DNA from: an uncultured Bacteroidia bacterium
Lineage (GTDB): Bacteria; Bacteroidota; Bacteroidia; Bacteroidales; Prolixibacteraceae
Length of the DNA stretch: 64,000 nt
Assembly: GCA_903854235.1 (NCBI GenBank)
Contig: CAINVV010000227.1
Span: forward strand, 4,065 to 68,064
Direction of reading: 5' to 3'
Every line of letters starts with the position of its first letter. The stretch's first letter is position 1. The notes under the pieces are model-generated. The model ran no database searches. It was not told the origin of the DNA and saw only the letters and a program-made list of their open reading frames with translations. Shown here one piece after another: positions 7,094 to 51,267 of the stretch. A program made the position numbers and the translations under genes.

Positions 7094-7102
7094 CAACCAT
7101 CT

Positions 7103-25220: not shown

Positions 25221-25228
25221 CTAGAACA

Positions 25229-28268: not shown

Positions 28269-28351
28269 CGTAGGATCAAATATTACAAATTAATAGATCG
28301 TCAACTGTATGACCGTTTCGCAAGTGTCAACGTAAATCGTATTCCCCTAAG

Positions 28352-34658: not shown

Positions 34659-35996
34659 TTATCTCTCATATCTTTTTTCAAGTTCTGCTCCCACAAAATA
34701 GTGTTTCAATATTTCTTCGTGAGCATACCCTTTTTCTCCCATCATGGCAGCACCGATCTGGCAAAGTCCGACACCATGGCCCCAACCGGCACCTGTTAAG
34801 ATGATTTTACCGGGGATGTTGTCACTCCACTCTTCGTAATCGACGACAAAAGCCGAGCTGTACAAATGTGAGTTGGACAGTATTTTCCTTATTTCCAATT
34901 CTTTGCCGACTGTTAATGTCTTCTTCGTACCGATTATCTTCATTTTTACTAGTCTGCCAGAATTTCCCCTTTCAACAGGTTGGATTCCAATAATTAGTCC
35001 GAAATCAAATCCGGTTTTTCTTAGAAGGAGTTCAGAAAGCTCAGATTGCCCAAAGGTTACCTTCCACCTGTAAAAATCCATGGTTTCCTGATCGTAGTCG
35101 TTAAGCACCTGTGAAAGGACCTTGTGATCGGTGGTGTTGCAAAAAGCATCGGGAGAAGAGCGAATCCATTTATCTGCCTCGCGTTCATTTGTCAGCACCG
35201 GAACGTCCCTGATATGACCTTCAGGTGTGTCATAGAAAGTCTGCAAGTAAGGATGAACCTCCGGTTCCCATACTTTTTCAAAGGTTTCCGTCGCACCACC
35301 GCAACTCTTGGAGAAACGTGCATCACACACTTGTCCCTCAAACATCAAGACCATACCGAAGGTATCGGTTACTGCTCTTTCAACGAGATTGCTGCTTTGA
35401 CGTGTAATGCCCTGATAGCGTTGACAGTGGTCATCGGCGCAAACATCAAATAGTTGATGATCTTCCCGGTCATACCATCGAATGTATTCTTCCTTTGTTT
35501 GATGGATGGTTTGGTAGTTGACTTTGGATGCTCTTAAGTCACTCCCTTTTACGACCTGAGCTATTAGCCAGGAGCGGGAGATGACTGCATGTGCCTTCAA
35601 CAGTTCCAGGCTGCTGGTGGCGCTCATCTCAGAGGAGATTACACTAATCAGATAATCTTCCAACGGTAAAATATTAATGGCCTGAAGTTTATTCCCTTCC
35701 GGAAGAAATTGGAGGGCGCCTTTAAATAGTTGATCTTCCTTTCGCTCCCAGTGGAATTGCACCCCAATGGTAACATCGGACAGTTCGAAGGAACAGTTGT
35801 TTGCATTCAGTGGAATAAAAGTAAGATCGGGTTGGTCAAAGGGCAGACCATTGAGCGAAATTTTCCCATCTTCCAAACGGATGACCTGTTTCCCAGAACA
35901 GATGGTCCCATTTTCAAACTGCGTATATTCACCGTTGAGGCAAAAACGAATTTCCGTTTCTGCCATGATCCCTATCTTCAATTGTGGCTGATTCAT
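34659..35996 (-). CDS. SpoIID/LytB-domain protein without a detectable signal peptide
   Basis: 'AHAVISRSWL', 'CQRYQGI', 'FSKSCGGATE' and 'GWGHGVGLCQIGAAMMGEKG'. ATG 35996 gives a TAAcATG junction with the upstream gene; ATG 36059 is an alternative. Confidence 0.8.
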   Translation of the reverse strand: MNQPQLKIGIMAETEIRFCLNGEYTQFENGTICSGKQVIRLEDGKISLNGLPFDQPDLTFIPLNANNCSFELSDVTIGVQFHWERKEDQLFKGALQFLPEGNKLQAINILPLEDYLISVISSEMSATSSLELLKAHAVISRSWLIAQVVKGSDLRASKVNYQTIHQTKEEYIRWYDREDHQLFDVCADDHCQRYQGITRQSSNLVERAVTDTFGMVLMFEGQVCDARFSKSCGGATETFEKVWEPEVHPYLQTFYDTPEGHIRDVPVLTNEREADKWIRSSPDAFCNTTDHKVLSQVLNDYDQETMDFYRWKVTFGQSELSELLLRKTGFDFGLIIGIQPVERGNSGRLVKMKIIGTKKTLTVGKELEIRKILSNSHLYSSAFVVDYEEWSDNIPGKIILTGAGWGHGVGLCQIGAAMMGEKGYAHEEILKHYFVGAELEKRYER

Positions 35997-35997
35997 G

Positions 35998-36978
35998 TTA
36001 AATGACCTCCCTTTGAAATTTGGAAATGGATTGGCGAAGTCTTTGAAAACCTTCGTCATCCAAAGTTACCTGGTTAAAAATATCCAAAATAACCGATTCT
36101 GTTATTTTTTCGTAATCCTCATGGCGCGGGGTGATGAAGACCCCGCCAAAATCAACGGCAGCAGGACTAATGAGCAGTTGCCTGTCACCCTCCTCAAAAA
36201 ACTGGGAAGGGCGATGCAGTTTGCGCGGGAAGAGATGAATGATCCATTTCCCCTCCTTAAAATAGCTGAGCAGGTTCATCATCGGCTCCACCTTGCCCGG
36301 TTGAAGTTCTCCCAAGCTACTGGTGACGTACTCCAAAGCGGATACCCCAGCTTCCGCACGCTCAAATTCAAAGGAAATCATCTTTCTGACATAGTTTCCA
36401 AAAGCCCATATTTTTAATCCTTCCGATTGATGGAGTAGATATTCGGTTTGGATTTTTAAGGTTTCAAAATCTTCTTCGACAGGCATAAAACCATTTTCTC
36501 CGGCTTGAAAATGGAGATGGTCGGGTGCAGAAGCTCCACATTCCGGACCATTGTAAAACACGGTGTAGCCTGTCATTTGAAGGGCAAATTCCAACAGGGC
36601 GGGAAAATTTCCACTGATTAGCTGGTCTGTATGGTGAAGAAATGGAAGTGTGAAATGGATCCGAAAGATCGGAAAGGGATTGACCAGAAGCAGAAAATCG
36701 TGCCCCATCAGGAGATGTCGCTGCTCCTCAGGACGATTTTCGGTACATAAAAAGCATTTTCGTGCGGTGATGGAACCCCTGTCCACTTTGGCAGCAGAAG
36801 ATCGTATTCTTTCGGGATTGAATTGAATCCTGAACTTCCATCCATTAAGGGTTAGATCCCGCTCTACTACCTGGTCCAGGTTGCGGTAATTGTCGTACGA
36901 GAGCTTCCAGTCATGGTTTTGGTCTATCAGAAAATTTCTGTACCTGTCGTTTTTTTGTACCATTTTTTTATGCACCAT
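35998..36978 (-). CDS. DUF4922-like protein, HIT superfamily GalT/Ap4A-phosphorylase/GDP-L-galactose-phosphorylase branch
   Basis: 'FYNGPECGASAPDHLHFQAG' (HxHxQ at 36505-36519), 'IQFNPERIRS' and 'LLLVNPFPIFRIHFTL'. No signal peptide. Confidence 0.7.
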   Translation of the reverse strand: MVHKKMVQKNDRYRNFLIDQNHDWKLSYDNYRNLDQVVERDLTLNGWKFRIQFNPERIRSSAAKVDRGSITARKCFLCTENRPEEQRHLLMGHDFLLLVNPFPIFRIHFTLPFLHHTDQLISGNFPALLEFALQMTGYTVFYNGPECGASAPDHLHFQAGENGFMPVEEDFETLKIQTEYLLHQSEGLKIWAFGNYVRKMISFEFERAEAGVSALEYVTSSLGELQPGKVEPMMNLLSYFKEGKWIIHLFPRKLHRPSQFFEEGDRQLLISPAAVDFGGVFITPRHEDYEKITESVILDIFNQVTLDDEGFQRLRQSISKFQREVI

Positions 36979-38437
36979 TTTTATCCTTGTTCATCGCCTT
37001 CCTGGCAAGGAATTCGATGGTCCTGATTCTGTCTTTGTAAAGATTGTGTCCATTCATCACCTCCACGCTTAAGGAGGCATCTGAATTGTCGTCCCATCTT
37101 CGGCAAAGATAAATTGGGTCATAGATTCTGCCAATCTGGTAATGTCTCGAAATAGCCAGTCCGAGGGCATAATCTTCGCCATAATTCACATTGGGCACTT
37201 TTATACAGCGAAGGACCGGTGTATAAAAGGCTCTTGGCGCGCCTAATCCATTAATTCGCAATGCATTATTTCGGCCATTATCGGGCGTCCATTCCTTATG
37301 GTCAATGATTCCAGGCGGAATTTCCTCGAGCGCAAAGTTGACCATCTTGTAGGAACCCACCACCATGGCACATTGCTCCCTGTAAAAAGCATCCACCACT
37401 TGCTGAAGGGTCGTCTCATCGAGATAAAGATCGTCGCTGTCCAGTTGAACCGCAAATTTTCCACACAGAGGGTGCGCCGCCGCTGCATTCCAGCAACCAC
37501 CTATACCCAAATCCTTGCGGTCAGGAATGAGATGAATCAGCCTGGCATCTTTTTCGGCATATTTCTCGATAAGTTCAGTAGTCCCATCTGTCGAGTAGTT
37601 ATCGGCGATGATCAGGTTAAAAGAAAAATTGGCTTTCTGGGAGAGGACGGAGACAATGGCATCTTCGATGGTACGCACCCGGTTTCTGACCGGTATAATC
37701 ACGGATGCTTCCACGGGAAAAGACTCCGCGTTAAAGTCGACTGGGTGAAAAGTAGGCTCGAGATAGGCCCCCGAAGTTTTAAGAAAGCTGGTACAGACTT
37801 TTTCCATCTCGACCTGTACGGCCCGATTTTTGGGATCCACATAATCGAAGATTTTCTCACCAGAGAGACGAAGGTCGGATTCCTCTTCGGTATAGAGATA
37901 CTCTGGAATCCTGAAAATCGGAGCAATCAACGATAGTTGGAGGCGGAGCGCATAAAGGCCAGCACGGGAAAGTCCCTTGTCGACCTGTGCGGCTGCCATT
38001 TTGAAATACTCACTCTTGTAAAACAGGAGTGAACCAAAATTGAAATCATCCCGCAAGCCACCTTCCTGATAGTCTATCACAGGATTTACCTCGGGAATAC
38101 CTGATTTCACCGCCAGATAATTCGAATAGAGCATTCCGCTACCGGTATCTTCGGCTATTTGTACAAAGCGTTCCAGGGCAAACTGGCTCAATTTCAGCGG
38201 ACTGTGCCTAGTATAGAGCAGCATATATTCCGAACGACCTTGGGCGGCGATGGTCTGAATGGCGGATCCACTGGTCATGCTATCCGTGTAAAGCCATTCA
38301 GCACCTTCCACGTCAAAAAGGGCCTTCTCAGATCCAATCAGAAATATTTTGGCAATCAAGGCAGAACTTCTCAGTTCCCTGACTGTTGCCTTTGTCTCAT
38401 TTTCACTCCCAAAAGGGATAAAACAGGTAATCTTCAT
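36968..38437 (-). CDS. family-2 glycosyltransferase with ~240 aa N-terminal extra domain
   Basis: C-terminal half has 'ASVIIPVRNRVRTIEDAIVSVLSQ', 'IIADNYSTDGT' and 'VQLDSDDLY' (DxD). The N-terminal half starts 'KITCFIPFGSENE', which is GT-A-like but degenerate. Confidence 0.8.
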   Translation of the reverse strand: MKITCFIPFGSENETKATVRELRSSALIAKIFLIGSEKALFDVEGAEWLYTDSMTSGSAIQTIAAQGRSEYMLLYTRHSPLKLSQFALERFVQIAEDTGSGMLYSNYLAVKSGIPEVNPVIDYQEGGLRDDFNFGSLLFYKSEYFKMAAAQVDKGLSRAGLYALRLQLSLIAPIFRIPEYLYTEEESDLRLSGEKIFDYVDPKNRAVQVEMEKVCTSFLKTSGAYLEPTFHPVDFNAESFPVEASVIIPVRNRVRTIEDAIVSVLSQKANFSFNLIIADNYSTDGTTELIEKYAEKDARLIHLIPDRKDLGIGGCWNAAAAHPLCGKFAVQLDSDDLYLDETTLQQVVDAFYREQCAMVVGSYKMVNFALEEIPPGIIDHKEWTPDNGRNNALRINGLGAPRAFYTPVLRCIKVPNVNYGEDYALGLAISRHYQIGRIYDPIYLCRRWDDNSDASLSVEVMNGHNLYKDRIRTIEFLARKAMNKDKNGA

Positions 38438-38464: not shown

Positions 38465-41400
38465 CTATTTTTTATCCAGAACCCGAATCACTTGGCCAAT
38501 CAGAGCATCCCGTTCCTCCGTTGTGGATATCGTTTCGATCGGAATACCAAGAACGACGGCTGCATATTTGCCCTTGAAACAGACTCCGGCACTTTTGTTG
38601 TCCCCAAAATAGCGAAAAAGAACGGATGCCCCATTCCCGGCAGGTTCAATGGCGTCGGGCGATTCTACTTTGTAAATGGTTGGATGCCAATTGTTCACAT
38701 AGTGATAGGCTTCGATATTTTTTTCTTTCCAACCATTGACTGTGTAAATAAGACCAGATTTTGAGCCGTGGCTGGTTCGTAGCGTGTAGTGAAGGGTTTC
38801 GGCTGCGAATTTTTTTGACAGCGAATCTCCACACAACGATAGGTCTGATCCTAGATAGGCGCCAGACAACAACAACTTGGCCCCATCATAATTGGCTATT
38901 CTGGTTAAGGCAGCTCTCATCCCCGGGGTAAAAATGGTGAAGTCCCTACCGGGAAAGCCAATGGACCTGCTGGTAGTCTTCTCTTCCCCAAAAATCAGAT
39001 CTACTATCGAGAAAGAGGGGGTATTTATTTGTTGCTTTTCAAAAGCTTCGTCGCTCATTGAGATAAATCCGAATCCATTGTTTCGGAATGATTTTCCGTG
39101 AACATAGGGATAGTCGAAACTATTTCCAGGAACAATCCGGGTCTCCTGGTCTGCGTGACTGGATCCAAAACCGGAAGCATCATCATCCAGCCAAGGGGAT
39201 TTGCGGTCAAAATCATACTGCTCTCCAATGTAGGATACGTTTTTAAGGTAGGAAACTCCTTCATCTTCCGACATCAGGAAGCCTGCCTTTTTACCGTTGT
39301 CGTAGGCTGCCGGAGCACATATTCTATCGAAGCCATTGACGATAAGTACTGGTTTCTTCCCGTCGATGGGAAGGGAGCAGGCGAGAATCTCGGATGGAAA
39401 GCTCTCACCGCCTTCATTGAAGGCGGTCACTTTGAAGCTGACAATCGTCCCTGGCTTCAGATTTGTAATTGACAAGGTAGTATCCCTGACTACAATCCCT
39501 TCATCAAATCCATCATCTTCAATCCGTTTGTATACCCTGTACCCAGATGGTTTTGCGGTGGGTTCAAGCAGATCAGTTACAGGAGTCCAGGAGAGTATCA
39601 AACGATTTTCCTCCAGGTTCATGGCCATATGGTCTACTGGCAATGGCTGAACGACGTAGGGAAACCCGTTCTGATAGGAAAGAAATTTTAATATTCCTTT
39701 GTAGAAGGCACGGCAAACATCGAACTTGAACCGGGGGTCCTGGGCGAGATACATGTCCGCGAAATTCTGGTGGGAGAGCAATTCAGACAAGATGGCCGGC
39801 ACTTTGGGTCTTGCCGCCTCAAAATATTTTTTATTCCAGAGTCCTCGCCTGGTCCAGTCGGCTTTGTGCAATTTTTGCAAATCACCCACCACCTGGGATT
39901 GAACGATATCTGCAAGATCGCGGCTGGCCCATTTGGACTGTCCGTTGGGAAAAGTCTCCTTATCAAAGGAGGTATCGAAAATCATCAGGGAACCGATGAT
40001 GGAGCTGTCGGGAGTGGTTCCTGCGTCGGTATGAAAGGCCATCGACAAATCCATCGGAATGCCCATCCCTTTCACATGAGGAGCCTTGGTAGGTCCATTG
40101 GGATCACCCATCAGGTAATTGACAAATTCACCCCGGCTCATGTAGTCGTCCTTGTAGTCCTCCTTGCCGCTTTCGCGCTGGGCAAAATTGGCAGCATCAG
40201 ATCCACGGTTGGAATAATCGACCTTGGTACGGTTCAGGTTGTACACAATCGAATCGGGAAATCCTGCGTACTGGAGGTAGTACCTGGCCGCCTCCTGGTA
40301 TCGGGGGCGTTGACTGGTGAAGGGAATCCAAGCCGTTGAATCCATCTTCCAACCCTTCTTTTCGCGTAGTTCATACAATTTTTTCAGTTGAGGCTCATTC
40401 CCGCGCACGATGTTTCCAGTCCCCCCACCGAAACGCACCGCATCTGCGGAGATCATTTTCCCGGGTTCACCGGAAGAATTGGCCAGCAAAACCATTCCCC
40501 GCTCTGGATGTTTGCCTTTTTCAAATTTGAAGGTCCCAAGGTAGATCCAAGTCCCTCCACCGATCGACTGGTTTACCCTGAAGGTCGTTTGTCCACCGGC
40601 ATGGGAGATGGTGTAGCTTGCATCCGTTGCATTTTTTTCGCTTTGGAGATAGGAGATGTAAACGGCATAATAGTCTGTTTCAGGAATTTCCGGAACGTAT
40701 TTGGCAAACGCATCAGCTGTTGATTTGGCTGCGACGGTTCGGGTGTGACCAAACTGGAATGGATTTTCCCCGTCGAACAAAAAAGGATATTTGAATGCAA
40801 ATCCTGGCTGAACTGAGTTTTGCCAGTTTTCACCCTCCTCCTTGTATTCAGACCCGGGGGAAGATCCTTCTGCATCCACTACGACTTCTCTGTAGCCGAA
40901 ATCCCTTTCGCGGGGTAACCACACCGTGGCTCCGGCATTCTCGAGCATCGGAGTCAGGTAGGGAACCACAAAACCAAGCGTCCAGATATCCTCAACGGTC
41001 AGGAAATCCCTTGCCCGCTGCCATTCCCAACGATCCAGCGTGTTTTCGTAATACCATCCGTGGCTGTGCCATAGGGAGATGTTCCGGTTGTCCAGCCCTT
41101 TGGGGAACTTTACATCCCGAGTTAGGTTGCGGGCCACCTGAGCGGGTCTTGGTCTGTTCACCGTCAGACGAGCGGAGTCGATCCGGTCTGATTTGCTTCG
41201 ATAAAAATTAGGGACCAATTCTCCGATTTCTTTCCCCATGGTGGTGATGGTGAGGTTGCTTTTTTTGAATTTTCTACCGAGCAACAGCCTGTAGTCGGTG
41301 TAATATTTTTTTATATCCTCCGGTCGGAAGGGGATTTCACAGAAGGAAGGGTTCATAACCAGTTGGAGGATATCCCCCTTTGGGTTCATTTTGACGGTAT

Positions 41401-41605
41401 CCATCCTGAATTTATAGTTTGTACCCGCAGAAACTTGTATGGCAAACTCTTTGGAAGCCTCTTTGGCCTTTTTGTAAAGCCGCTGTTTCTTATCAGCCAT
41501 GGATACCTGCGTCAGCATTAGCAGGGCAAAGATCAGTAGCATTAATCTTGACAGAGGCAAAGCATATCCTTGCGTTCGATGGCAACTCAGGCGATATTTT
41601 TTCAT
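38465..41605 (-). CDS. 1046-aa exported multidomain protein: split Amidase_3-like (MurNAc-L-Ala amidase-fold) region with a large beta-rich insert, an Fn3 domain, and an unknown ~300 aa C-terminal domain
   Basis: ATG 41605 lies 8 nt after the upstream stop and gives the signal 'LMLLIFALLMLTQVSMA'. Amidase-like motifs 'LWHSHGWYY', 'TVEDIWTLGFVVPYLTPMLENAGATV', 'MAFHTDAG' and 'ILSELLSHQNFAD'. The insert contains 'GGGTWIYLGTFKF...ISADAVRF'. Fn3-like segment at about residues 655-745. Confidence 0.65.
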   Translation of the reverse strand: MKKYRLSCHRTQGYALPLSRLMLLIFALLMLTQVSMADKKQRLYKKAKEASKEFAIQVSAGTNYKFRMDTVKMNPKGDILQLVMNPSFCEIPFRPEDIKKYYTDYRLLLGRKFKKSNLTITTMGKEIGELVPNFYRSKSDRIDSARLTVNRPRPAQVARNLTRDVKFPKGLDNRNISLWHSHGWYYENTLDRWEWQRARDFLTVEDIWTLGFVVPYLTPMLENAGATVWLPRERDFGYREVVVDAEGSSPGSEYKEEGENWQNSVQPGFAFKYPFLFDGENPFQFGHTRTVAAKSTADAFAKYVPEIPETDYYAVYISYLQSEKNATDASYTISHAGGQTTFRVNQSIGGGTWIYLGTFKFEKGKHPERGMVLLANSSGEPGKMISADAVRFGGGTGNIVRGNEPQLKKLYELREKKGWKMDSTAWIPFTSQRPRYQEAARYYLQYAGFPDSIVYNLNRTKVDYSNRGSDAANFAQRESGKEDYKDDYMSRGEFVNYLMGDPNGPTKAPHVKGMGIPMDLSMAFHTDAGTTPDSSIIGSLMIFDTSFDKETFPNGQSKWASRDLADIVQSQVVGDLQKLHKADWTRRGLWNKKYFEAARPKVPAILSELLSHQNFADMYLAQDPRFKFDVCRAFYKGILKFLSYQNGFPYVVQPLPVDHMAMNLEENRLILSWTPVTDLLEPTAKPSGYRVYKRIEDDGFDEGIVVRDTTLSITNLKPGTIVSFKVTAFNEGGESFPSEILACSLPIDGKKPVLIVNGFDRICAPAAYDNGKKAGFLMSEDEGVSYLKNVSYIGEQYDFDRKSPWLDDDASGFGSSHADQETRIVPGNSFDYPYVHGKSFRNNGFGFISMSDEAFEKQQINTPSFSIVDLIFGEEKTTSRSIGFPGRDFTIFTPGMRAALTRIANYDGAKLLLSGAYLGSDLSLCGDSLSKKFAAETLHYTLRTSHGSKSGLIYTVNGWKEKNIEAYHYVNNWHPTIYKVESPDAIEPAGNGASVLFRYFGDNKSAGVCFKGKYAAVVLGIPIETISTTEERDALIGQVIRVLDKK

Positions 41606-41613
41606 AAGTGCAA

Positions 41614-42735
41614 TTAAACTTTGATAAATATTTTCTTTTTGAACAAAAAATACCCCAACAACCAGAAGAGAAAAACGTGGGATATGGCAAAGAGCAACGA
41701 TCCATTCAACTCTCCTGCCAGAGGCAGAAACACATTGTTGTACAACCAGGCTGAGCCGCTTATCATTTTCCCATTGGTCGAGGGAATCTGGATCAACCTG
41801 CCGAGAATCCTGGCCCATAATCCGGAGAAGGCAAAGATAAAAAGGGGGTTTACCCCGAACACGATAAAGAAGGAACACCAGTAGGAATATCCTTTCAAAT
41901 CGATAAGCCAGATCAACAAGGCGAGCATTAAGGAGGCCCAACCAGCAGAATATAAAACATAGGAGCTGGACCAAATTGGTTTCGAAATGGGAAAATAGAG
42001 ACCCCATAACCAGCCTGTAATCACTGCAAGAATGCCAGCCACAGCCAGCGTGAGGGGAACTTTCCCTTTGGGGGTCTCTTTGATGACGGATCCTGCCAGG
42101 TACCCAATCACCACCGTGACGATGGAGGGCAGGGTGCTGAAAATCCCCTCGGGATCGAACGGAATCCCAAAACCTCTGTAAAGATGATCTACGCCCAGCC
42201 AGGCTGTATCAAAAGGAATGGCAGGATTGCCCTGAAGGGAATATGGGTCTGTTCCTCCTCCCCAAGCAACCAATCCCCAATATAGGAGGAGGATCAATCC
42301 GCTTGCAAAAGGCAAATATTTCTTGTTCATGGATAAAACGAGCAAAGCTGCCAGTCCGTAGGCCAACGCAATCCGCTGCAAAACTCCCATGATTCTCAAA
42401 TGGGCATAGTCAGCACTCCATTGGGGAAAAGAATTCAAGAAGAGGCCTATCGCAAAGATCAAAAGGGTGCGTTTCCCTATTTTCAGCAGGGATTCCTTGT
42501 TCAATCGGTTGCCATATTTGGAGAATGAAAAAAACATGGAAGCCCCGACCACAAAAAGAAAGAAGGGAAATACCAGATCAGTTGGAGTACACCCCTGCCA
42601 GGCAGCATGTTCCAGGGGAGCATATATATGTGCCCAGCTACCGGGATTGTTGACGAGAATCATCAATGCCACGGTCATCCCCCGAAGTACATCCAGGGCA
42701 AGATACCTTTGGTTGTTTGGTGATATGTTTTCCAT
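41614..42735 (-). CDS. DUF5009/DUF1624 membrane acyltransferase (heparan-alpha-glucosaminide N-acetyltransferase-like, NagX-like)
   Basis: 'RYLALDVLRGMTVALMILVNNPGSWAHIYAPLEHAAWQGCTPTDLVFPFFLFVVG' plus about 10 further hydrophobic segments. Confidence 0.78.
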   Translation of the reverse strand: MENISPNNQRYLALDVLRGMTVALMILVNNPGSWAHIYAPLEHAAWQGCTPTDLVFPFFLFVVGASMFFSFSKYGNRLNKESLLKIGKRTLLIFAIGLFLNSFPQWSADYAHLRIMGVLQRIALAYGLAALLVLSMNKKYLPFASGLILLLYWGLVAWGGGTDPYSLQGNPAIPFDTAWLGVDHLYRGFGIPFDPEGIFSTLPSIVTVVIGYLAGSVIKETPKGKVPLTLAVAGILAVITGWLWGLYFPISKPIWSSSYVLYSAGWASLMLALLIWLIDLKGYSYWCSFFIVFGVNPLFIFAFSGLWARILGRLIQIPSTNGKMISGSAWLYNNVFLPLAGELNGSLLFAISHVFLFWLLGYFLFKKKIFIKV

Positions 42736-42739: not shown

Positions 42740-44281
42740 TCAGTGTTTAACGAATTTAACCGGTTTGCTTTCCAAATGCGTTGGACTCAGCGCCGTTACA
42801 ACATATCGGAAACGGGATGGCCTGTATCCTTTTGCTCCATTTAGCAGCAATTTTTGGTAGGAAGTGATGGCAATGATCTTGTTGGGGTGATCGGTATTTT
42901 TACGCTGCAATATTTTATAACGATAAACCACATACAGGCTGTTGTTCTCTTGCCTCTGCCACGACAAAACGATGTTTTTTCCTTCGCGTTGAAGGGTGGC
43001 ATTCCCCGGTTCTGCAGGTATCACAGGATCAATTCTCGGGTTGACAGGAGTTAAGGAAGGAAATTTATAATGCTCATTTAGGAGCTTTTCCCTGATGCCA
43101 AGGGGATTGCTTTTCAGGAACTTGGCACTGAAATACATGCTGCCTTTAATTTCAGTGATGGTTCGGTTTAAACTAAGCTGCCGGTTGATTTCGTCGGAAC
43201 TTCTCCAAGCCGGGTCTTTCGATGCTGGATCGAGCAGATACAAGGCTTGTCCCGTATAAATGTTGCAACCATAACTGTGATCGGCCCACCATTTTACCAG
43301 AATTTTGTAGTCAGCAACCTCTTTCCCAATGTACCAGTAAAGTTGCGGGGTAACGTAGTCGATCCATTTTTCCTGTTGCCATTTGAGGATGTCCGCATAC
43401 AAATCATCGTAATTGGAGACGCCGGCTCTCGTATCAGATCCGTTTGGGTCATTTTTTTTGTTGCGCCATACTCCAAAGGGAGATATGCCGAACTCGACCG
43501 TAGGTCGGATGGCCTTGATGCTGTCGTGCAATTGCTTGATGATAAGATCCACGTTGTTTCGCCGCCAATCCTCCTTTTGCTGGGGACCAAAATTTCCAGC
43601 AAATTTTTTGAAGGACTTATCATCGGGAAAATCAGCTCCGGAGATTTTGTAGGGGTAAAAATAGTCATCGAAATGAATGGCATTGATGTCATAGCGCCTC
43701 ACAAGATCACTGACGACATTGGCAACATGGTTGCGAACAGCAGGAATACCCGGATCAAAATACTTCTTGTTTCCATAGGTAACCATCCACTCGGGATGGG
43801 TATTGACCACATGATTGGGAGCAGCCTTTGTTTTTTCCGTGTTTTGGATGGCCCGGTAAGGGTTGAGCCACACGTGGATATCCAAGCCTCTCTTCCGGCA
43901 CTCTTCAATGGTGAATTGCAGCGGATCGTACCAGGGATCCGGTGCGACACCCTGTTTGCCTGTCAGCCACTCTGACCAGGGTTCAATGGTTGAATAATAA
44001 AGGGCATCTGCATCGGGCCGGATCTGAAAAACAACCGTGTTCAGGTTATAGGCCTTCACCGAATCCAGCAAGGTTATCATTTCGGCTTGCTGTTCGGCTG
44101 TGGTTAAATGGGAACTGGATGGCCAGTCAATGTTCTCGACGGTTGCAATCCATACGGCCCTCATCTCCCGTTTGGGGTATTCCTTGTTTTTGGCTGAAAC
44201 TGTCAATCCAACCATCCATAGAACAATAAATAAGTATTTCAGCTTCTTCACGAGATAGATCTTTAATATATTGTGGTACAA
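42740..44281 (-). CDS. exported GHL10 / UPF0748 glycosyl-hydrolase-like protein (YddW/DigH, YngK family)
   Basis: Signal peptide, then 'EMRAVWIATVENIDWPS' and a TIM-barrel-like pattern ('IHVWLNPYR', 'IHFDDYFYP'). Confidence 0.75.
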   Translation of the reverse strand: MYHNILKIYLVKKLKYLFIVLWMVGLTVSAKNKEYPKREMRAVWIATVENIDWPSSSHLTTAEQQAEMITLLDSVKAYNLNTVVFQIRPDADALYYSTIEPWSEWLTGKQGVAPDPWYDPLQFTIEECRKRGLDIHVWLNPYRAIQNTEKTKAAPNHVVNTHPEWMVTYGNKKYFDPGIPAVRNHVANVVSDLVRRYDINAIHFDDYFYPYKISGADFPDDKSFKKFAGNFGPQQKEDWRRNNVDLIIKQLHDSIKAIRPTVEFGISPFGVWRNKKNDPNGSDTRAGVSNYDDLYADILKWQQEKWIDYVTPQLYWYIGKEVADYKILVKWWADHSYGCNIYTGQALYLLDPASKDPAWRSSDEINRQLSLNRTITEIKGSMYFSAKFLKSNPLGIREKLLNEHYKFPSLTPVNPRIDPVIPAEPGNATLQREGKNIVLSWQRQENNSLYVVYRYKILQRKNTDHPNKIIAITSYQKLLLNGAKGYRPSRFRYVVTALSPTHLESKPVKFVKH

Positions 44282-44383: not shown

Positions 44384-45826
44384 CTATTGATAGCTCACCT
44401 CCATGTGCCAGCTCCACTTATCAAAATAGAGGTTTCCCCCTTTCCACTCCACCTCTCCGCGCTGGAAATCATAAGGCTCACTTCGGAAGAATTTCTTGAC
44501 CGGAGTGAAGGGTTGGCTGATATCATCGTTGACAATCAATCGGTAGGCATCGATACTGGTGATGTAAAAATCACGGATCAATGGGTCTGGACTGTCTTGC
44601 AATCCAAACGATTGATCCAGAGGGATCCAGCCGTAACCCTCAAACCATACTTCGCACCAGTCGTGCAGGTTGACGGCTCCCGGATGGAGCATCCATCCGC
44701 TTTGCCATTTGACGGGAATTCCGGCATACCTGGCGAGGGTCATGAAGAGCAGGGTCTGCATCCCACAGTCACCGTGGTGATTTTCAATCACAAATCCGGG
44801 AATGTCAGACATGATGCTGTACTCCAGCGCACTGGCCCAGGTGACTGAATCGTTGATCCAGCGATATATTTTTCTGACCTTAAGCAGTGGATTAGTCTCG
44901 TCTTGTAAAATCCTCTTGGCGAGAGATTTGATCTTGTGATTGAAAATTATTTGAGGAGGTCTTTCTGCAACATAAACTTGATAGAGGAGATCATAGGTCT
45001 GATAGGGCTTCATCATTTCAGGTGTAAGTCGGAAGGACTGAGCAAAAGTAGTAACCTGAATTTCAGAATGGAAAACGGTAGGAAGATGAGCAGAGGTTGT
45101 CTTCTCGAGGTAAAGAGATCTTTGAAAATCTGACACCGGTGAAATCAGACTTTGAGCAGGTTCGGTTAGAATAAGTTTTACCTCTTGCTGCCTCGGGTGG
45201 TTTTCCCTCGGGAAGGGCATCCAGCAACGAATGGTCTCTCCTGCCGGAACGGCATCGGGTGCCACTGTGATGGTATAAGAGAGTTTCATCCTGACCGAAT
45301 TGACGGGTTGACCGGATTGTTTGGTGTTTTGCACAATTTTCGCCAAATCAGCCACCCGGAATTGGGAGATCAAATCCGGCTCATTGCCCTCTTTTTGAAC
45401 TTTCAGCCTTCGGTACAAACTATCCAGTCTGAAAATATTGCCTATACAGTTTTTGAAATAGTATTTTTTACCCTCAATTGTCAGGAAATCGATTTTATGC
45501 TCCTTTTCAAGCCTTAACATTTCTTTGGTATCAAATCCGGCATTGTACTTCTCCATTTTCTGGATGACATCGCTGTCGGTGAGGGTGAAATCCTTTCTGA
45601 TGCGCGACATTGTTTCAAGCAGGGAATCGAGGCGTATATGGTCGGTCACCGGAATCTTATTGGTGCTCCTGAGCTGGGATGCCTCAAAAGCTGCCTCTGT
45701 GAAATTGCCTGCTTTAACCAGGTTTTCAAGGTGAGAAACACCCTTGTCACCGGAACGAATAGTACATCCGGTCAGACAAACATGAAGAAAAAGTGCCAGC
45801 GTCAAAATTCCAAATATACGGGCCAT
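44384..45826 (-). CDS. transglutaminase-like cysteine-protease-fold lipoprotein
   Basis: Lipobox 'LHVCLTGCT'. Intact Cys-His-Asp core 'HHGDCGMQTLLFMTLARYAGIPVKW', 'NLHDWCEVW' and 'WIPLDQS'. Confidence 0.8.
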   Translation of the reverse strand: MARIFGILTLALFLHVCLTGCTIRSGDKGVSHLENLVKAGNFTEAAFEASQLRSTNKIPVTDHIRLDSLLETMSRIRKDFTLTDSDVIQKMEKYNAGFDTKEMLRLEKEHKIDFLTIEGKKYYFKNCIGNIFRLDSLYRRLKVQKEGNEPDLISQFRVADLAKIVQNTKQSGQPVNSVRMKLSYTITVAPDAVPAGETIRCWMPFPRENHPRQQEVKLILTEPAQSLISPVSDFQRSLYLEKTTSAHLPTVFHSEIQVTTFAQSFRLTPEMMKPYQTYDLLYQVYVAERPPQIIFNHKIKSLAKRILQDETNPLLKVRKIYRWINDSVTWASALEYSIMSDIPGFVIENHHGDCGMQTLLFMTLARYAGIPVKWQSGWMLHPGAVNLHDWCEVWFEGYGWIPLDQSFGLQDSPDPLIRDFYITSIDAYRLIVNDDISQPFTPVKKFFRSEPYDFQRGEVEWKGGNLYFDKWSWHMEVSYQ

Positions 45827-45844: not shown

Positions 45845-48391
45845 TCAGTTAGAATGAAGTTGTCCTTTGCTCTTGTCTGCTGTTGACAGCTCTGTTATCT
45901 TGCAAAAGTGGTAACCTTTTCCGGTGAAAAATTCAAGTAATTCATCGAGATGGTTGTACAATTTATCGGTACGAAGTGGTGAAGTACCAAGATGAATGAG
46001 AAGAAGGGTGCCATTTAATCCATTTTTATCCGAGGATTCAAATTTCTTCAATTTTGTCATTATCTTTTCCGAGCTATTGTAGTTGAGCTGTTCAGGCGTG
46101 GTATAATCCGAGTTGGAACCGATACCGGGTGTGTAGTTGAGGATGGTCAATCCCAATTTGCTTGCCCTGTCAACGATTTCACGGTTGCACCACTCATAGG
46201 GAGGAAGAAAGTAGTTGGCCTCTTTCGTTTGGATCCCAAAAGTCTTCATGGTTTTGTAATTGGCTATCAGGTCATTTGTAAAATCAGCGGAATTCACCAG
46301 GGTTGAATCTCTTTTGATCCAATCGGCATACAGCAGATGCTTGTCTGAATGTGCACCCAGATAGTGACCGTCTGCAATCAGCCTCCTGATCAAATCTGAA
46401 TTTTTGCCATTTCGGTAGAATTCGCCCGTGAAGAAAAAGGAGGCTTTGGCTCCATATTTTTTAAGTGTTTTTTCAATGGTTATACCACCTTCTCCAAATT
46501 CGTGTGCAGAGAAAATCAAGTAAATTTTTTTCTCCTGGCTGTCGAATCTGACGACCGCCCCCTGGCTGTCGAATGATCGTGAGGAGTGACCGGAAATGGT
46601 GTCGGACGCTTCCAGGGAGGAGAGCAGGTAACTCAAACTGGCGGTACCATCCATGGTCGGTTCGTTGGTGGAGTAATCCCCGTTATCGTCGTGATAGACG
46701 GCCCTCCCTCCCTGTAATTCTGCATGGGCATCCGACTTATGAAGCTTGATGCCAAGCAGCGAACCGTAGATCTGTCTGTAAACGGGACCATCTACCAATC
46801 CGCCGTAGGTTGGCTGTTTCATCCAATAGGTGATGGCTGAATGAGGGTCTTTCGGATACTCACCATAAGAAGGCATTCCACAGATCATCGAGGTGCCCCA
46901 AGGATTGCATCCAAATAGCCAGTCAGTAAGAGCGGCTTCCAATTCCTCAAACTGACGGTCTCCTGTAATCAGCCTGTAAAGTCTGGCCTGTGTAGCTGCA
47001 GCGACAACCAGATTGTTGGAGCACCAAATGAAAGGAATACCGATGGGGAAGGGGTCGTTGACCGAAAATTTCTGAAGGGAAGTTAAGCCCTGTCTTAAAT
47101 AGTCCCTGAATTTTTTTGAAAGTAGCGTATCGCCGGACTGAGCCAGTAAGGTATGCCCCAGGTTGACAAAAGGATAATATTGGTAGTGACGGGCGCGATG
47201 AAGTTCCATCCAGGGAGTGACCGGTTCCAGATCTCCCCATTTGGCAGCAGCCAATTGATCCTCGCTGGAATGTGAGATTTGTGCCAGGTTAGCAGCAGCC
47301 AGTTCAAGGTCATCTGCGTAATTCTCCTCTTCATAAAAATAGGGAGAGACTACACAAGCCGTTTGGCAGACTCCTGGATCGGACAAGGCAAATTCCCACG
47401 CTTCGCGGGATTTTCTCTCCAGTTTAACGGAAAGATCCGGGTCGATGTTTTTAAATACTTTTGCGCCCAAAGCAAAGGAGGAGCTGAACTTGGCAGCTAC
47501 TGAGGCGACCCCTGTGGTGCGGTTTCGGTGTTTTCCTGTTCCCTGGGGCTTTCCTGTTACGAAATAGACGGGTCTGAATTTTTTACCCAACCCATAGGAT
47601 ACGGTATCTTGATTGGGAAGCCGGTAGCCCCTGTGATCTCTGTCATCGGCTATCTGGTAATACATTTCATTCCTGGAAGGATTCATTTTCAAAAGCCAAT
47701 CCAGACCCCAGCGGGCTTCATCCAGAATGTCGGGTATTCCGTTCGGACCTGATAGTCCGTTTGCCTGATAATTGTCCTTATAGACAGATGGGTTGCGGAG
47801 ATAGGCGAACAACATTTGGTAGACTGCATTGGCTGAAGTGAGGGTATATTGAAGATAGTCGGAAGCATCGTGCCACCCCCCTGTGACATCTATCCATTTG
47901 CCGCTCTTGGTGGGGTGATCAACAATAATTCCGTCTGCGGTATGACAGGAATCTTTTAGAAACGGATTGAATCCACAACGCTGCTGCCGAAGATAGTTGA
48001 GAACATAGTCTGCCGAACCTCTGTATATGCCGAAGGAGATGGGGAATGGGGGTGAAACTGCGTTACCGGCTTCCAGGTGATATCCTCCCGGTTGTACGAC
48101 AGAAGAAAAATTTAGCCTGAAGGCACTTCTTTGCCCCCATAAAGTGCCATCAGCGGCTTCCGGGACTCCTTTAAAGATGGTTTTGCCCGAAAGATTGTCA
48201 ACCAAAACAAAATTCTTCAACAAAATTCTTTCGTCACTGAGGAAAACCGCTGTTTTTAGCCCTTCCGGGAGATATCCCATTTGATTTACCCTTATTGCAT
48301 CCGCCCCGAAGGCAGGCGAACAAAGGCAAAGAACAGCTATGATGACACCATATATTTTATACATGGAAAGGAGTATTTGTAAGAAAAACAT
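45845..48391 (-). CDS. exported GH9 glycoside hydrolase fused to a C-terminal polysaccharide-deacetylase-like domain
   Basis: GH9 motifs 'VTGGWHDASDYLQY', 'DDRDHRGYR' and 'YHDDNGDYSTNEPTMDGTA'. The C-terminal ~235 aa (about 45848-46558) carry 'GAKASFFFTGEFY', 'GHYLGAHSDKH' and 'YFLPPYEW', which resemble NodB/CE4. An alternative start at 48364 gives 'MYKIYGVIIAVLCLCSPAFGA'. Confidence 0.8.
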   Translation of the reverse strand: MFFLQILLSMYKIYGVIIAVLCLCSPAFGADAIRVNQMGYLPEGLKTAVFLSDERILLKNFVLVDNLSGKTIFKGVPEAADGTLWGQRSAFRLNFSSVVQPGGYHLEAGNAVSPPFPISFGIYRGSADYVLNYLRQQRCGFNPFLKDSCHTADGIIVDHPTKSGKWIDVTGGWHDASDYLQYTLTSANAVYQMLFAYLRNPSVYKDNYQANGLSGPNGIPDILDEARWGLDWLLKMNPSRNEMYYQIADDRDHRGYRLPNQDTVSYGLGKKFRPVYFVTGKPQGTGKHRNRTTGVASVAAKFSSSFALGAKVFKNIDPDLSVKLERKSREAWEFALSDPGVCQTACVVSPYFYEEENYADDLELAAANLAQISHSSEDQLAAAKWGDLEPVTPWMELHRARHYQYYPFVNLGHTLLAQSGDTLLSKKFRDYLRQGLTSLQKFSVNDPFPIGIPFIWCSNNLVVAAATQARLYRLITGDRQFEELEAALTDWLFGCNPWGTSMICGMPSYGEYPKDPHSAITYWMKQPTYGGLVDGPVYRQIYGSLLGIKLHKSDAHAELQGGRAVYHDDNGDYSTNEPTMDGTASLSYLLSSLEASDTISGHSSRSFDSQGAVVRFDSQEKKIYLIFSAHEFGEGGITIEKTLKKYGAKASFFFTGEFYRNGKNSDLIRRLIADGHYLGAHSDKHLLYADWIKRDSTLVNSADFTNDLIANYKTMKTFGIQTKEANYFLPPYEWCNREIVDRASKLGLTILNYTPGIGSNSDYTTPEQLNYNSSEKIMTKLKKFESSDKNGLNGTLLLIHLGTSPLRTDKLYNHLDELLEFFTGKGYHFCKITELSTADKSKGQLHSN

Positions 48392-48668: not shown

Positions 48669-49514
48669 GTGATATTAATTGCAGATTCTGGATCCACAAA
48701 ATGCGCCTGGAAATTGGTCTTTCCTTCTGGCCGGTTGGTTTCAATTTACACCTCAGGAGTTAATCCGTTTTTCAGATCGACGGAGTCGATTTACGAAGAG
48801 TTAGCGATTGAACTCCTTCCAAAAATTACAGCTACCGTAGGGGATATCTATTTCTATGGTTCCGGAATCCTCAATGAGGAGAAGGCGGATGTAGTCCGAC
48901 TTGCCCTGCAAAAATTATTTCCTGGTGCCAGGATCGAACTCTTCAGTGACGTTGTCGCTGCTTCCAGATCCCTTTTTGGCAACAGCGCAGGAATTGCCTG
49001 TATTCTTGGAACAGGATCCAATGCTTGTTTGTATGATGGTCAGAAGGTGGTTGGCGGAATATCACCACTTGGATTCATCCTCGGGGATGAGGGCAGTGGT
49101 GCCGTTTTAGGGAAGAAATTGCTGGGAGATTTTTTTAAAGAGGTCATGCCGGAGCCACTTCGTAAAAAATTTGCACAAAAATACCAACTTACCAGAGCTG
49201 AAGTTCTTCAAAGGGTATACAAATCAGAGAAGCCGAACTTCTATCTGGCATCTTTTGCCCCTTTTCTCTCAGAAGAATTTTCCTCAGACTATGTCCAACA
49301 ACTGGTAAAAAGCAGTTTGATCGAATTCTTTGAGCGCAATGTCACCAAAATTTCCGGATACGAATCCCACTCCATCGGCTTTGTGGGATCCATCGCTTTC
49401 CATTTCAAGTCGATTGTAGAAGAAATTTGTGAGCGTTATCGCCTTCCTTGTAAAGCGATTCTTCAGGAACCGATGGAAAATTTAGTGAAATACCACCAGA
49501 ACATTATTAATTAA
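48669..49514 (+). CDS. murK: BadF/BadG/BcrA/BcrD-type ATPase, N-acetylmuramic acid/N-acetylglucosamine kinase-like
   Basis: 'ILIADSGSTKCAW', 'ACILGTGSNA' and 'GFILGDEGSGAVLG'. It lies 9 nt upstream of murQ, as in the Tannerella murTKQ arrangement. GTG start. Confidence 0.7.
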   Translation: MILIADSGSTKCAWKLVFPSGRLVSIYTSGVNPFFRSTESIYEELAIELLPKITATVGDIYFYGSGILNEEKADVVRLALQKLFPGARIELFSDVVAASRSLFGNSAGIACILGTGSNACLYDGQKVVGGISPLGFILGDEGSGAVLGKKLLGDFFKEVMPEPLRKKFAQKYQLTRAEVLQRVYKSEKPNFYLASFAPFLSEEFSSDYVQQLVKSSLIEFFERNVTKISGYESHSIGFVGSIAFHFKSIVEEICERYRLPCKAILQEPMENLVKYHQNIIN

Positions 49515-49523: not shown

Positions 49524-50342
49524 ATGAATACCGAAAGTATTACCGAAAAAGATTCGCTATATCACGATTTGGAAAAGATGTCGGTAAAGGAGTTGCTTCA
49601 TCACATCCACGAAGAGGATAAGAAAATACTGCCAGCTGTAGGGGCAGTGATTCCGAAGATTGAAGAGCTGGTAGAGCAGGTATTTCTGAGGATGAAGAAA
49701 GGTGGGCGACTGTTCTACATGGGAGCCGGTACAAGTGGACGTTTGGGTATTTTGGATGCATCTGAGATTCCTCCAACATTTGGCGTGGGCCACGGACTAG
49801 TTATCGGTCTGATCGCGGGGGGTGATAAGGCCATTCGGAAAGCCGTTGAGGCCGCCGAAGATGACGAGGAGGTTGGATGGAAAGAGCTTGAAAAACAGGA
49901 TATTAACGAACTGGATACGGTGGTTGGTATTGCCGCTTCCGGCAGAACTCCCTACGTAGTTGGTGCCGTTAAAAAAGCGAGGGAAAACAAGATCTTGACG
50001 GCCTGCATTGTAAATAATCCCGGCAGTGTCCTTGCTAGAAATGTGGACATTGCCATTGAAGCGATTGTTGGCCCGGAGTTTGTAACAGGAAGTACGCGCA
50101 TGAAATCAGGCACTTCACAGAAAATTATCCTGAATATGATCACTACTTCGGTCATGATCAAGCTGGGCAGAGTGAAGGGGAATAAAATGGTCAATATGCA
50201 ACTTACCAACCAAAAACTCGTGCACAGGGGAACCCGGATGATTGTGAGTGAACTGGGTTACAGTGAAGACAAGGCCAAGAGACTCCTTTTGTTGCACGGA
50301 TCCGTAAATGAGGTTCTTGAGGCAGCTAGAAATGAAAAATAG
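49524..50342 (+). CDS. murQ: N-acetylmuramic acid 6-phosphate etherase
   Basis: SIS-domain motifs 'YMGAGTSGRLGILDASEIPPTFG', 'GIAASGRTPYVVGA' and 'TGSTRMKSGTSQK'. Confidence 0.92.
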   Translation: MNTESITEKDSLYHDLEKMSVKELLHHIHEEDKKILPAVGAVIPKIEELVEQVFLRMKKGGRLFYMGAGTSGRLGILDASEIPPTFGVGHGLVIGLIAGGDKAIRKAVEAAEDDEEVGWKELEKQDINELDTVVGIAASGRTPYVVGAVKKARENKILTACIVNNPGSVLARNVDIAIEAIVGPEFVTGSTRMKSGTSQKIILNMITTSVMIKLGRVKGNKMVNMQLTNQKLVHRGTRMIVSELGYSEDKAKRLLLLHGSVNEVLEAARNEK

Positions 50343-51246: not shown

Positions 51247-51267
51247 ATCTTTTAAATAAGGTGGTTC

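Follow-up and report, generated by a model that had tools for sequence, protein, structure and literature searches.

A candidate transmembrane glucosamine N-acetyltransferase in a peptidoglycan salvage locus of an uncultured Prolixibacteraceae bacterium

A membrane protein of 373 amino acids, P0001, is encoded in a 64,000-nucleotide stretch of DNA (the window) from an uncultured bacterium of the Prolixibacteraceae. We propose, with a probability of roughly 0.55, that it is an acetyl-CoA-dependent, periplasm-facing N-acetyltransferase for cell wall fragments that bear glucosamine (GlcN). By sequence and by predicted structure it is a clear homologue of the catalytic membrane domain of human HGSNAT; its catalytic activity and the identity of its acceptor are what we infer. 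The surrounding locus is the Bacteroidales MurNAc/muropeptide salvage operon known from Tannerella forsythia, which a preliminary description of the same DNA had missed.

Results

Open reading frame and family assignment

The reading frame described previously is intact:

41614..42735, minus strand: P0001, ten-transmembrane-helix protein of the HGSNAT/MurT/NagX superfamily (373 aa; ATG start, TAA stop)

The short distances reported to both neighbours were also recovered. The TGA of the GHL10 gene (42742-42740) is separated by 4 nt from the P0001 ATG at 42735, and the P0001 TAA (41616-41614) by 8 nt from the ATG of a giant gene at 41605.

Assignment as an HGSNAT/NagX-like membrane protein, proposed earlier from the letters, was borne out by profile, PDB and fold comparisons. 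The NCBIfam model NagX (NF046061) matched residues 22-373 (E 1.6e-40, 139.4 bits). A phmmer search against the PDB matched human HGSNAT (8vkj) at E 1.9e-21 in two aligned stretches spanning residues 10-302, with H43 paired to the HGSNAT catalytic H297; the C-terminal “KKKIFxK” tail fell in a non-significant phmmer stretch against 8vkj. The AF2 model of P0001 (pLDDT 91.4, pTM 0.90) gave human HGSNAT as its top Foldseek match (TMq 0.77, E 7e-16) and the acyltransferase GWT1 as its second (0.63), while transporter folds all scored TM 0.2 or lower. Hydropathy analysis showed ten hydrophobic segments, as in the ten-helix TmAT fold.

The HGSNAT catalytic family and TmAT superfamily are identified by PF07786 and TCDB 9.B.169. 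Neither PF07786 nor PF16401 matched P0001 in a local Pfam hmmscan, even at E ≤ 10. A relative that is 86% identical has a precomputed PF07786 match, and paralogues and orthologues match this model at 1e-8 to 1e-11. We attribute the silence on P0001 to the model or to filtering and do not take it as a sign of non-homology. Due to this blank, the family assignment rests on NCBIfam, PDB and fold matches.

Functional residues and topology

Roles in catalysis, acetyl-CoA binding, pore gating and GlcN binding have been assigned to 11 residues of HGSNAT (PMC11199644), and all 11 are retained in P0001. H43, D53 and N29 correspond to the H297-D307 dyad and the oxyanion Asn N286, R10, R18 and R89 to the acetyl-CoA contacts R267, R275 and R345, M25, F56 and F59 to the pore gate M282, F310 and F313, and R114 and E196 to the GlcN contacts R372 and E499. 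The histidine that the preliminary description called conserved is thus H43, and it is accompanied by the other known HGSNAT residues.

All 11 positions are invariant in 18 of 18 rows of the window and MurT clades, where 48 of 373 columns are invariant (hypergeometric probability of the 11-residue overlap, 5e-11). T. forsythia MurT retains all of them. They are also retained in 78-80 of 80 named Bacteroidales loci, where invariance is partly by construction because 4 of the 11 positions sit inside the peptide patterns used to fetch those loci; a separate set of 35 sequences from genome searches is free of that bias. Retained residues might also serve ligand binding in a transporter.

A positive-inside count predicts that H43, D53, R114 and E196 lie in periplasmic loops, which agrees with the periplasm-facing site suggested previously.

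The peptidoglycan salvage locus

The “murein-degrading array” named in the preliminary description is real and comprises 12 co-directional genes running from 48391 to 27132. In addition to P0001, the array and its flanks encode:

45845..48391, minus strand: fusion of GH9, CelD_N and CE4 polysaccharide deacetylase, with signal peptide; first gene of the array
44384..45826, minus strand: transglutaminase-core lipoprotein (LTGC lipobox)
42740..44281, minus strand: GHL10 (PF02638) glycoside-hydrolase-like protein with signal peptide (E 1.3e-79)
38465..41605, minus strand: exported protein of 1046 aa with Golvesin_C and fn3 domains and weak Amidase_3; Tanf_08345 homologue
36968..38437, minus strand: GT2 glycosyltransferase without signal peptide; Tanf_08350 homologue
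35998..36978, minus strand: DUF4922 protein; Tanf_08355 homologue
34659..36059, minus strand: SpoIID/LytB-domain protein; Tanf_08360 homologue
32751..34619, minus strand: AmpG-family muropeptide MFS permease (TIGR00901, E 7e-51); Tanf_08365 homologue
29732..32728, minus strand: exported fusion of GH3 (NagZ-like) and a beta-lactamase fold, with signal peptide
27132..29527, minus strand: NlpC/P60 + SH3 peptidase and enolase-superfamily (MR_MLE), dipeptide-epimerase-like enzyme; tail of the array
48669..49514, plus strand: MurK-type MurNAc kinase, divergent from the array; matches T. forsythia MurK (8oqw/8ow9)
49524..50342, plus strand: MurQ, MurNAc-6-phosphate etherase (NF003915, 360 bits against a cut-off of 168)
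21828..27055, plus strand: SusC/SusD-like outer-membrane pair, convergent on the array

The kinase is closer to T. forsythia MurK (E 1.6e-69) than to the K1058 paralogue (3e-59). Homologues of the GH9-CE4 fusion occur in window-type loci (L039, L146, L148 and L149) and near the T. forsythia locus. The GHL10 gene, whose true start probably lies downstream of the listed TTG, is also found just upstream in L041, L148, L149 and L152. For the neighbour previously called “giant amidase-like”, Golvesin_C and fn3 are the solid domains, whereas the Amidase_3 match is weak (E 7e-4, below the cut-off); this protein is 43% identical to Tanf_08345 (“xanthan lyase”), with which the T. forsythia operon begins. 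The genome carries murA, so the organism is not a MurNAc auxotroph.

Scans of the array for sigma-70 promoters (30 versus 27.5 in shuffles) and for intrinsic terminators (27 versus 23.4) did no better than shuffled sequence. We infer co-transcription of the array from gene spacing alone.

This gene content bears on whether P0001 might instead acylate the cell's own envelope, for example by O-acetylating its peptidoglycan or a polysaccharide in the manner of AT3/OatA proteins. TmAT proteins often modify surface glycans (PMC12423673), and the array does include a GT2 gene. However, the neighbours are all catabolic or salvage genes, no SGNH domain is fused or adjacent, and similarity to Acyl_transf_3 is only distant. 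P0001 also retains GlcN-binding residues of the HGSNAT type and a dyad directed at an amine. We give this possibility very little credence.

Relatives and paralogues

The T. forsythia locus, absent from the set of 80 named Bacteroidales loci, was fetched separately. It was located by an exact match of a published cloning primer and confirmed by its MurK, which matches PDB 8oqw at 283 of 283 residues (639.8 bits). IQ-TREE united the window and MurT clades with a third one (97/95) in an unresolved trichotomy. FastTree (114 rows) placed T. forsythia MurT (TfMurT) inside a clade of 86 rows without P0001, which fell in a separate clade of 13 rows (Prolixibacteraceae, Mariniphaga and Carboxylicivirga). 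On the basis of both trees we reject nesting of P0001 within the MurT clade. The window clade stays in peptidoglycan loci in at least eight genomes, and P0001 is the only MurT-like copy in its own genome.

Two paralogues in the same genome score 187 and 211 bits against NagX and fall in a separate clade; one adjoins a GH20 chitobiase gene. They help to weigh another reading, in which P0001 would be a generic enzyme of the NagX type that serves the use of chitin or free glucosamine and sits in the array by accident. NagX is its top NCBIfam match, and the array starts with a GH9-CE4 fusion; GH9 includes exo-glucosaminidases. Its score is nevertheless far under the 480-bit equivalog cut-off, both paralogues score higher, and its clade keeps to peptidoglycan loci, all of which make this reading very unlikely. 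Score, tree and gene context likewise rule out P0001 as a NagX orthologue: its neighbours are all peptidoglycan-related and form neither a nagP/nagK/nagA nor a chitin operon. Note that the name NagX was also given in 2026 to an S. maltophilia protein of another family, a periplasmic beta-N-acetylglucosaminidase; only the name is shared.

A sodium:solute symporter (SSF) gene lies directly upstream of the HGSNAT-like gene in L039, L041, L146, L148, L055 and L090, and in the present genome an SSF gene adjoins NamZ on contig C13. SSF is present in just 9 of 114 loci. We regard the SSF symporter as a separate candidate importer.

Proposed mechanism and MurNAc import as an alternative

In the reading that we favor, P0001 would reside in the inner membrane with the HGSNAT (TmAT) fold, ten transmembrane helices and both termini on the cytoplasmic side. 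From the cytoplasm, acetyl-CoA would enter a central pore, lined and gated by M25, F56 and F59, where R10, R18 and R89 would hold the CoA phosphates. At the periplasmic mouth the acetyl group would pass to the free amine of glucosamine, with H43-D53 acting as the catalytic dyad, N29 as the oxyanion holder, and R114 and E196 binding the 6-OH and 3-OH of the sugar. The likeliest acceptor would be GlcN that arises as foreign or turned-over peptidoglycan is broken down in the periplasm. It could be part of GlcN-MurNAc disaccharides, stand at the end of denuded glycans or muropeptides, or be free GlcN released from such fragments. The re-acetylated GlcNAc forms could then be used by the exported GH3 NagZ-like enzyme, AmpG and the MurK-MurQ route.

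A need for such a step is suggested by biochemistry from T. forsythia. TfNamZ1, encoded beside murT, frees GlcN-MurNAc from partly N-deacetylated peptidoglycan, and this product is cleaved by neither NagZ nor NamZ (bioRxiv 10.1101/2021.12.02.470905). The exported GH3 enzyme of the array and the GH9-CE4 fusion encoded by its first gene point the same way. The preliminary description had put forward periplasmic re-acetylation as a way to make de-N-acetylated wall digestible by NagZ-type enzymes. Superfamily, residues, predicted topology and the exported peptidoglycan hydrolases nearby favor the first part, and the published resistance of GlcN-MurNAc fits the second. The salvage operon and the rival role published for MurT had been overlooked, and predation, implied by the word “prey”, finds no support in the locus.

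The main rival is that P0001 only imports MurNAc (or anhydro-MurNAc), the sugar passing through the pore and being trapped on the cytoplasmic side by MurK phosphorylation, with no acetyl transfer. TfMurT (Tanf_08375) is published as a PTS-independent MurNAc transporter, and two articles that summarise Ruscitto 2016 report that TfMurT together with MurK restores growth of an E. coli murP mutant on MurNAc (PMC5388701, PMC7670621). A periplasm-only enzyme leaves this complementation unexplained. Import also accords with the 42% full-length identity of P0001 to TfMurT, with the same operon set (murK-murQ lie about 6 kb away) and with the lack of a second MurT-like copy in the genome. A homologue lies within 800 nt upstream of murK in 46 of the 80 named loci, the murT stop overlaps the murK start in T. 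forsythia, and the exported NagZ-like GH3 should yield free periplasmic MurNAc that needs import. Many murT-murK-murQ loci have no other obvious MurNAc importer, which counts against the acetyltransferase reading.

Several observations weigh against import alone. The fold is that of acyl-CoA-dependent acyltransferases, unlike known transporters; characterised relatives that share it are all acyltransferases of this kind (PMC12423673). Retention of the His-Asp dyad, the oxyanion Asn and the three arginines for the CoA phosphates in more than 100 sequences would serve no purpose in a protein that only transports. The Glu equivalent to E499 binds a free 3-OH in HGSNAT (PMC11199644), and MurNAc would present a lactyl ether there. 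HGSNAT itself moves no substrate across the membrane (PMC11199644), and the SSF symporter coupled to this gene or to NamZ offers an alternative importer. We judge a purely importing P0001 to be unlikely.

Both published views could be partly right if P0001 acetylated periplasmic GlcN-type acceptors and also passed MurNAc. Such a bifunctional protein would reconcile the invariant catalytic residues with the reported complementation in E. coli and would fit the tight coupling to murK in Bacteroidales. It would, however, be without precedent in the TmAT superfamily (PMC12423673), and in HGSNAT structures the pore is filled by acetyl-CoA, with no sugar passage (PMC11199644). We consider it quite unlikely.

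Discussion

In guts, mouths and sediments, Bacteroidota rank among the main recyclers of bacterial cell wall, and the textbook explanation for their MurNAc uptake is the murT-murK-murQ module. If the “transporter” of this module proves to be an enzyme of the HGSNAT type, the pathway would have to be redrawn and the true MurNAc importer would still have to be found. We tentatively extend the proposal, at somewhat less than even odds, to the whole MurT family including TfMurT, the MurNAc transporter of review articles: its members may be transmembrane acetyl-CoA:glucosamine N-acetyltransferases in an extracytoplasmic re-acetylate-then-cleave salvage route of Bacteroidota, with MurNAc imported by SSF symporters and AmpG. 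Re-acetylation would then neutralise the N-deacetylation by which other bacteria resist lysozyme, much as lysosomal HGSNAT does for heparan sulfate, and bacteria could digest lysozyme-resistant, N-deacetylated peptidoglycan. An enzyme of this kind would also provide an easily expressed bacterial model of the human Sanfilippo C enzyme. Should P0001 be an importer only, both gene and operon would be known ones, and it would be no more than a common orthologue.

Comparison with known systems

TfMurT is the nearest characterised relative of P0001 (E 1e-92 over the full length), and the two belong to a common family with the ten-transmembrane-helix HGSNAT fold. Their operons share the giant “xanthan lyase” protein, GT2, DUF4922, SpoIID/LytB, AmpG, MurK and MurQ. 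The genes immediately upstream differ: P0001 is preceded by GHL10 (GHL10-SSF in close relatives), whereas TfMurT is preceded by NamZ. In the window, murK lies 5.9 kb from P0001 on the opposite strand, without the translational coupling seen in T. forsythia.

To our knowledge, acetyl transfer is yet to be demonstrated for any bacterial protein of this family. NagX (Shewanella SO_3504 type; NF046061) was proposed by Price et al. 2022 to be a transmembrane glucosamine N-acetyltransferase, and fitness data from five bacteria are consistent with its acetylating periplasmic GlcN (PMC9007349); its activity is itself deduced from genetics (PMC9007349). It shares with P0001 the superfamily, a full-length match and the same conserved His, and the logic proposed for the two proteins is alike, namely acetylation of periplasmic GlcN to feed GlcNAc routes.

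Human HGSNAT (PDB 8vkj, 8vlg, 8jkv and 8tu9) has the catalytic transmembrane core in common with P0001 at about 24% identity; its N-terminal luminal domain and extra TM1 have no counterpart in P0001. The HGSNAT active site is luminal and that of P0001 is likewise predicted to be non-cytoplasmic, facing a neutral periplasm rather than an acidic lysosome. HGSNAT acetylates the terminal alpha-GlcN of heparan sulfate, whereas the acceptor proposed for P0001 is beta-linked or free GlcN derived from peptidoglycan.

Gene structure and family assignment

The gene for P0001, the HGSNAT-like protein of the window, is an intact open reading frame (41614..42735, minus strand, 373 aa). The upstream GHL10 gene ends with TGA at 42742-42740, four nucleotides before the P0001 ATG at 42735, and the P0001 TAA at 41616-41614 is followed after eight nucleotides by the ATG (41605) of a gene for a 1046-aa protein, here called Giant. 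Judged by these stop and start codons, the distances of 4 and 8 nt given in the preliminary description are exact. The gene is real, and the family call of that description is correct.

A local Pfam scan of P0001 returned no match even at E≤10. Current Pfam HGSNAT_cat/DUF5009 models skip the protein in hmmscan, yet detect relatives at 36-86% identity; annotation pipelines using only Pfam would label it hypothetical. The NCBIfam NagX model (NF046061) matches residues 22-373 (E 1.6e-40, 139 bits), well short of its equivalog cut-off of 480, and phmmer finds human HGSNAT as the PDB match (E 1.9e-21). For an AlphaFold2 model built with 61 homologues as input (pLDDT 91.4, pTM 0.90), the top structural match is human HGSNAT (TMq 0.77, E 7e-16) and the second is the acyltransferase GWT1; the structural search returned no transporter fold above TM 0.2. 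Close homologues (67-86% identity), most of them from Prolixibacteraceae and Marinilabiliales MAGs, carry DUF5009 or HGSNAT-domain annotations.

Predicted catalytic residues and topology

In the 2024 structures of HGSNAT (PMC11199644), H297 and D307 form the catalytic dyad, N286 stabilizes the acetyl carbonyl, R275 and R345 lie on the CoA diphosphate, R267 lines the pore, M282, F310 and F313 form the pore gate, and R372 and E499 hold the 6-OH and 3-OH of glucosamine. By phmmer alignment these residues fall on R10, R18, M25, N29, H43, D53, F56, F59, R89, R114 and E196 of P0001, all identical. Conservation in the window and MurT clades was assessed on 18 rows that came from a genome search and were not selected by motif; 48 of 373 columns are invariant, and all 11 functional positions are among them (hypergeometric 5e-11). 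Across 80 named loci, ten functional positions never vary, and 78 loci keep the E499 equivalent. Note that four of the positions fall within the peptide patterns used to fetch these loci, so that only the other seven constitute independent evidence there.

Hydropathy analysis gives ten hydrophobic segments; on one side the short loops and the termini contain 14 K/R, against 6 in the longer loops opposite. From this positive-inside count, both termini are predicted to be cytoplasmic and H43, D53, R114 and E196 to lie in periplasmic loops.

Gene array and proposed function

The P0001 gene lies inside a co-directional array running from 48391 down to 27132, with a MurK-type kinase gene and murQ divergent from it and a SusC/SusD pair convergent on its end.

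Genes of the array, in order, and the divergent pair
1st, GH9+CE4 deacetylase fusion
2nd, transglutaminase-core lipoprotein
3rd, GHL10
4th, 41614..42735, minus strand, P0001
5th, Giant, the 1046-aa Golvesin_C/fn3 protein (Amidase_3 match weak)
6th, GT2
7th, 35998-36978, minus strand, DUF4922
8th, 34659-36059, minus strand, SpoIID/LytB
9th, AmpG-family permease
10th, exported GH3 (NagZ-like) + beta-lactamase-fold fusion
11th, NlpC/P60
12th, enolase-superfamily enzyme
48669..49514, divergent, MurK-type kinase (nearest structures T. forsythia MurK 8oqw/8ow9, E 1.6e-69)
49524..50342, divergent, MurQ (NF003915, 360 bits)

By N-terminal sequence, signal peptides are present on the array hydrolases and absent from GT2 and DUF4922. 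The listed SpoIID reading frame and the DUF4922 gene share 62 nt, and no signal peptide is apparent at either candidate SpoIID N-terminus, which is odd given the expected peptidoglycan target outside the membrane. Succinyl-CoA ligase genes (50377-52404) lie between murQ and, 3 kb past it, a gene for a ShyC/MepM-like M23 peptidoglycan DD-endopeptidase (53378-54739, plus strand, E 2.5e-73). Because murA is present in the genome, salvage in this organism is nutritional, not obligatory.

We favor, with a probability of about 0.55, the reading that P0001 is a periplasm-facing, acetyl-CoA-dependent N-acetyltransferase acting on glucosamine from peptidoglycan breakdown; the mechanism overall is plausible but unproven. 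In T. forsythia, TfNamZ1 frees GlcN-MurNAc from partly N-deacetylated peptidoglycan, and this product is cut by neither NagZ nor NamZ (bioRxiv 10.1101/2021.12.02.470905), hence the need for a re-acetylation step. Candidate acceptors are the disaccharide, the ends of denuded glycans and free GlcN, and the exported GH3 enzyme could take the re-acetylated product. More speculatively, the CE4-GH9 fusion of the array may also yield GlcN. The "prey" cell wall of the preliminary description is unsupported, there being no sign of predation in these data.

The T. forsythia operon and MurT

The published T. forsythia operon (Tanf_08345-08385) comprises "xanthan lyase", two "gtf" genes, lytB, ampG, ybbC/namZ1, murT, murK and murQ (PMC5388701, PMC7670621, bioRxiv 10.1101/2021.12.02.470905). 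It was traced with the 27 gene-specific bases of the K1058 cloning primer (PMC10465942); of 183 genomes in the family containing Parabacteroides goldsteinii, 2 contain them without mismatch. One of these hits lies on contig 82 in a genome of 3.3 Mb, and the published operon is on contig_82. The order there is K1058 (divergent), Giant homologue, GT2, DUF4922, SpoIID, AmpG, NamZ, HGSNAT-like, MurK and MurQ. The MurK encoded there aligns with PDB 8oqw along its entire length of 283 residues (639.8 bits), which identifies the genome as T. forsythia and the HGSNAT-like gene as murT. Contig 82 also carries a full-length homologue of the window GH9+CE4 fusion (L156:4534-7026, minus strand, 49% identity); the K1058 kinase gene bordering the salvage operon is about 11 kb away.

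TfMurT (390 aa) is 42% identical to P0001 over the full length (E 1e-92), matches human HGSNAT (E 1.6e-15) and keeps all 11 functional residues. Its stop codon overlaps the murK start. The main rival reading, in which the protein is solely an importer as published for TfMurT, draws on this tight murT-murK coupling in Bacteroidales and on heterologous complementation, which a purely periplasmic enzyme would not explain; we nevertheless consider it unlikely. That one protein performs both acetyl transfer and transport seems less probable still.

Phylogeny and distribution

A sample of 301 genomes of the same order contains 67 with a P0001 homologue and 66 with MurQ; by coordinates, the two lie ≤25 kb apart in 16. 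In an IQ-TREE phylogeny of 35 homologues, the window clade, the clade adjoining murK-murQ and a small third clade group together (97/95) as an unresolved trichotomy. The two paralogues in the window genome belong to a different, more NagX-like clade (NagX scores 187 and 211 bits). The higher-scoring one, 38% identical to P0001, forms a divergent pair with a GH20 chitobiase gene (L060:6512-9109, minus strand, and 9376-10470, plus strand). Different HGSNAT-like copies thus appear to serve amino sugars of the chitin type and of the wall type in this genome.

A FastTree phylogeny to which the 80 named loci and TfMurT were added places TfMurT within an 86-row MurT clade and groups P0001 with Prolixibacteraceae, Mariniphaga and Carboxylicivirga sequences in a clade of 13 rows (support 0.90); membership of P0001 in the MurT clade proper was accordingly rejected. 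P0001 is the local counterpart of MurT, since it occupies the same locus, belongs to the nearest clade and is the sole such copy in its genome. In the 80 loci, murK lies ≤800 nt downstream in 46, murK and murQ are both present in 44, and AmpG is upstream in 43. The window-type order (GH9_CE4, transglutaminase-like, GHL10, [SSF], HGSNAT-like, Giant and onward) recurs in L039, L146, L148 and L149, and in Carboxylicivirga linearis the HGSNAT-like gene directly follows AmpG.

Thirteen rows forming a subclade within the MurT clade (L045, L094, L102, L105, L110 from Parabacteroides goldsteinii, L111, L120, L140-L144 and L147) have no murK, murQ or AmpG ≤8 kb away, being MurT-type paralogues in other contexts. 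Separately, 41 of 114 loci, Bacteroides reticulotermitis among them, carry between namZ and murT a gene for a GlcD/YdiJ-like FAD-linked oxidase + Fe-S/CCG protein of ~940 aa (for example L087:5133-7973, plus strand), which may oxidize the D-lactate that MurQ releases. The gene is absent from the T. forsythia locus (L157) and the window, and is undescribed in the T. forsythia operon papers drawn on here.

A separate candidate importer

In four window-clade loci (L039, L041, L146, L148), which come from the two closest sampled genomes and two named relatives, the gene immediately preceding the HGSNAT-like gene encodes a sodium:solute symporter (SSF, PF00474). Two MurT-clade loci (L055, L090) show the same arrangement.

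SSF genes and the NamZ-SSF pair
L039:10504-11979, minus strand, SSF, overlapping the HGSNAT-like gene by 32 nt
L041:7981-9429, plus strand, SSF, overlapping by 8 nt
L146 and L148, about 6450-7990, SSF
L055:3501-4943, SSF
L090:6373-7851, SSF
Contig C13, 4003-5211, NamZ exo-muramidase
Contig C13, 5282-6787, SSF symporter

The window has no SSF gene at that position; a homologue (56% identity) directly follows the NamZ gene on contig C13 of the same genome. This contig (L153:1770-11990) is a second cell-wall locus, with a GH3_C+beta-lactamase-fold gene divergent from NamZ, a 474-aa protein without family match, an Exo_endo_phos_3 protein and a TonB-dependent receptor. Since the NamZ-SSF pair offers a plausible candidate path for MurNAc uptake, there is less reason to require that the HGSNAT-like protein act as importer.

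Comparison with described systems

According to the TmAT paper (PMC12423673), which does not mention MurT, experiments have yet to confirm a function for any DUF5009 protein. The MurT papers drawn on here do not mention HGSNAT, and no paper linking the two was found among the eight best-ranked of 24 full-text matches for both terms. Price et al. (PMC9007349) describe NagX as distantly related to TfMurT. Note that the name "NagX" has also been given in S. maltophilia (Smlt4027, 2026) to a periplasmic beta-N-acetylglucosaminidase, which is not an HGSNAT-type membrane protein (PMC13436218). The locus of P0001 has the gene set of the T. forsythia operon, and the predicted periplasmic site of the protein agrees with the luminal position of the HGSNAT active site. 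Two published functional assignments conflict here in a way that is readily testable, and P0001 bears on that conflict.
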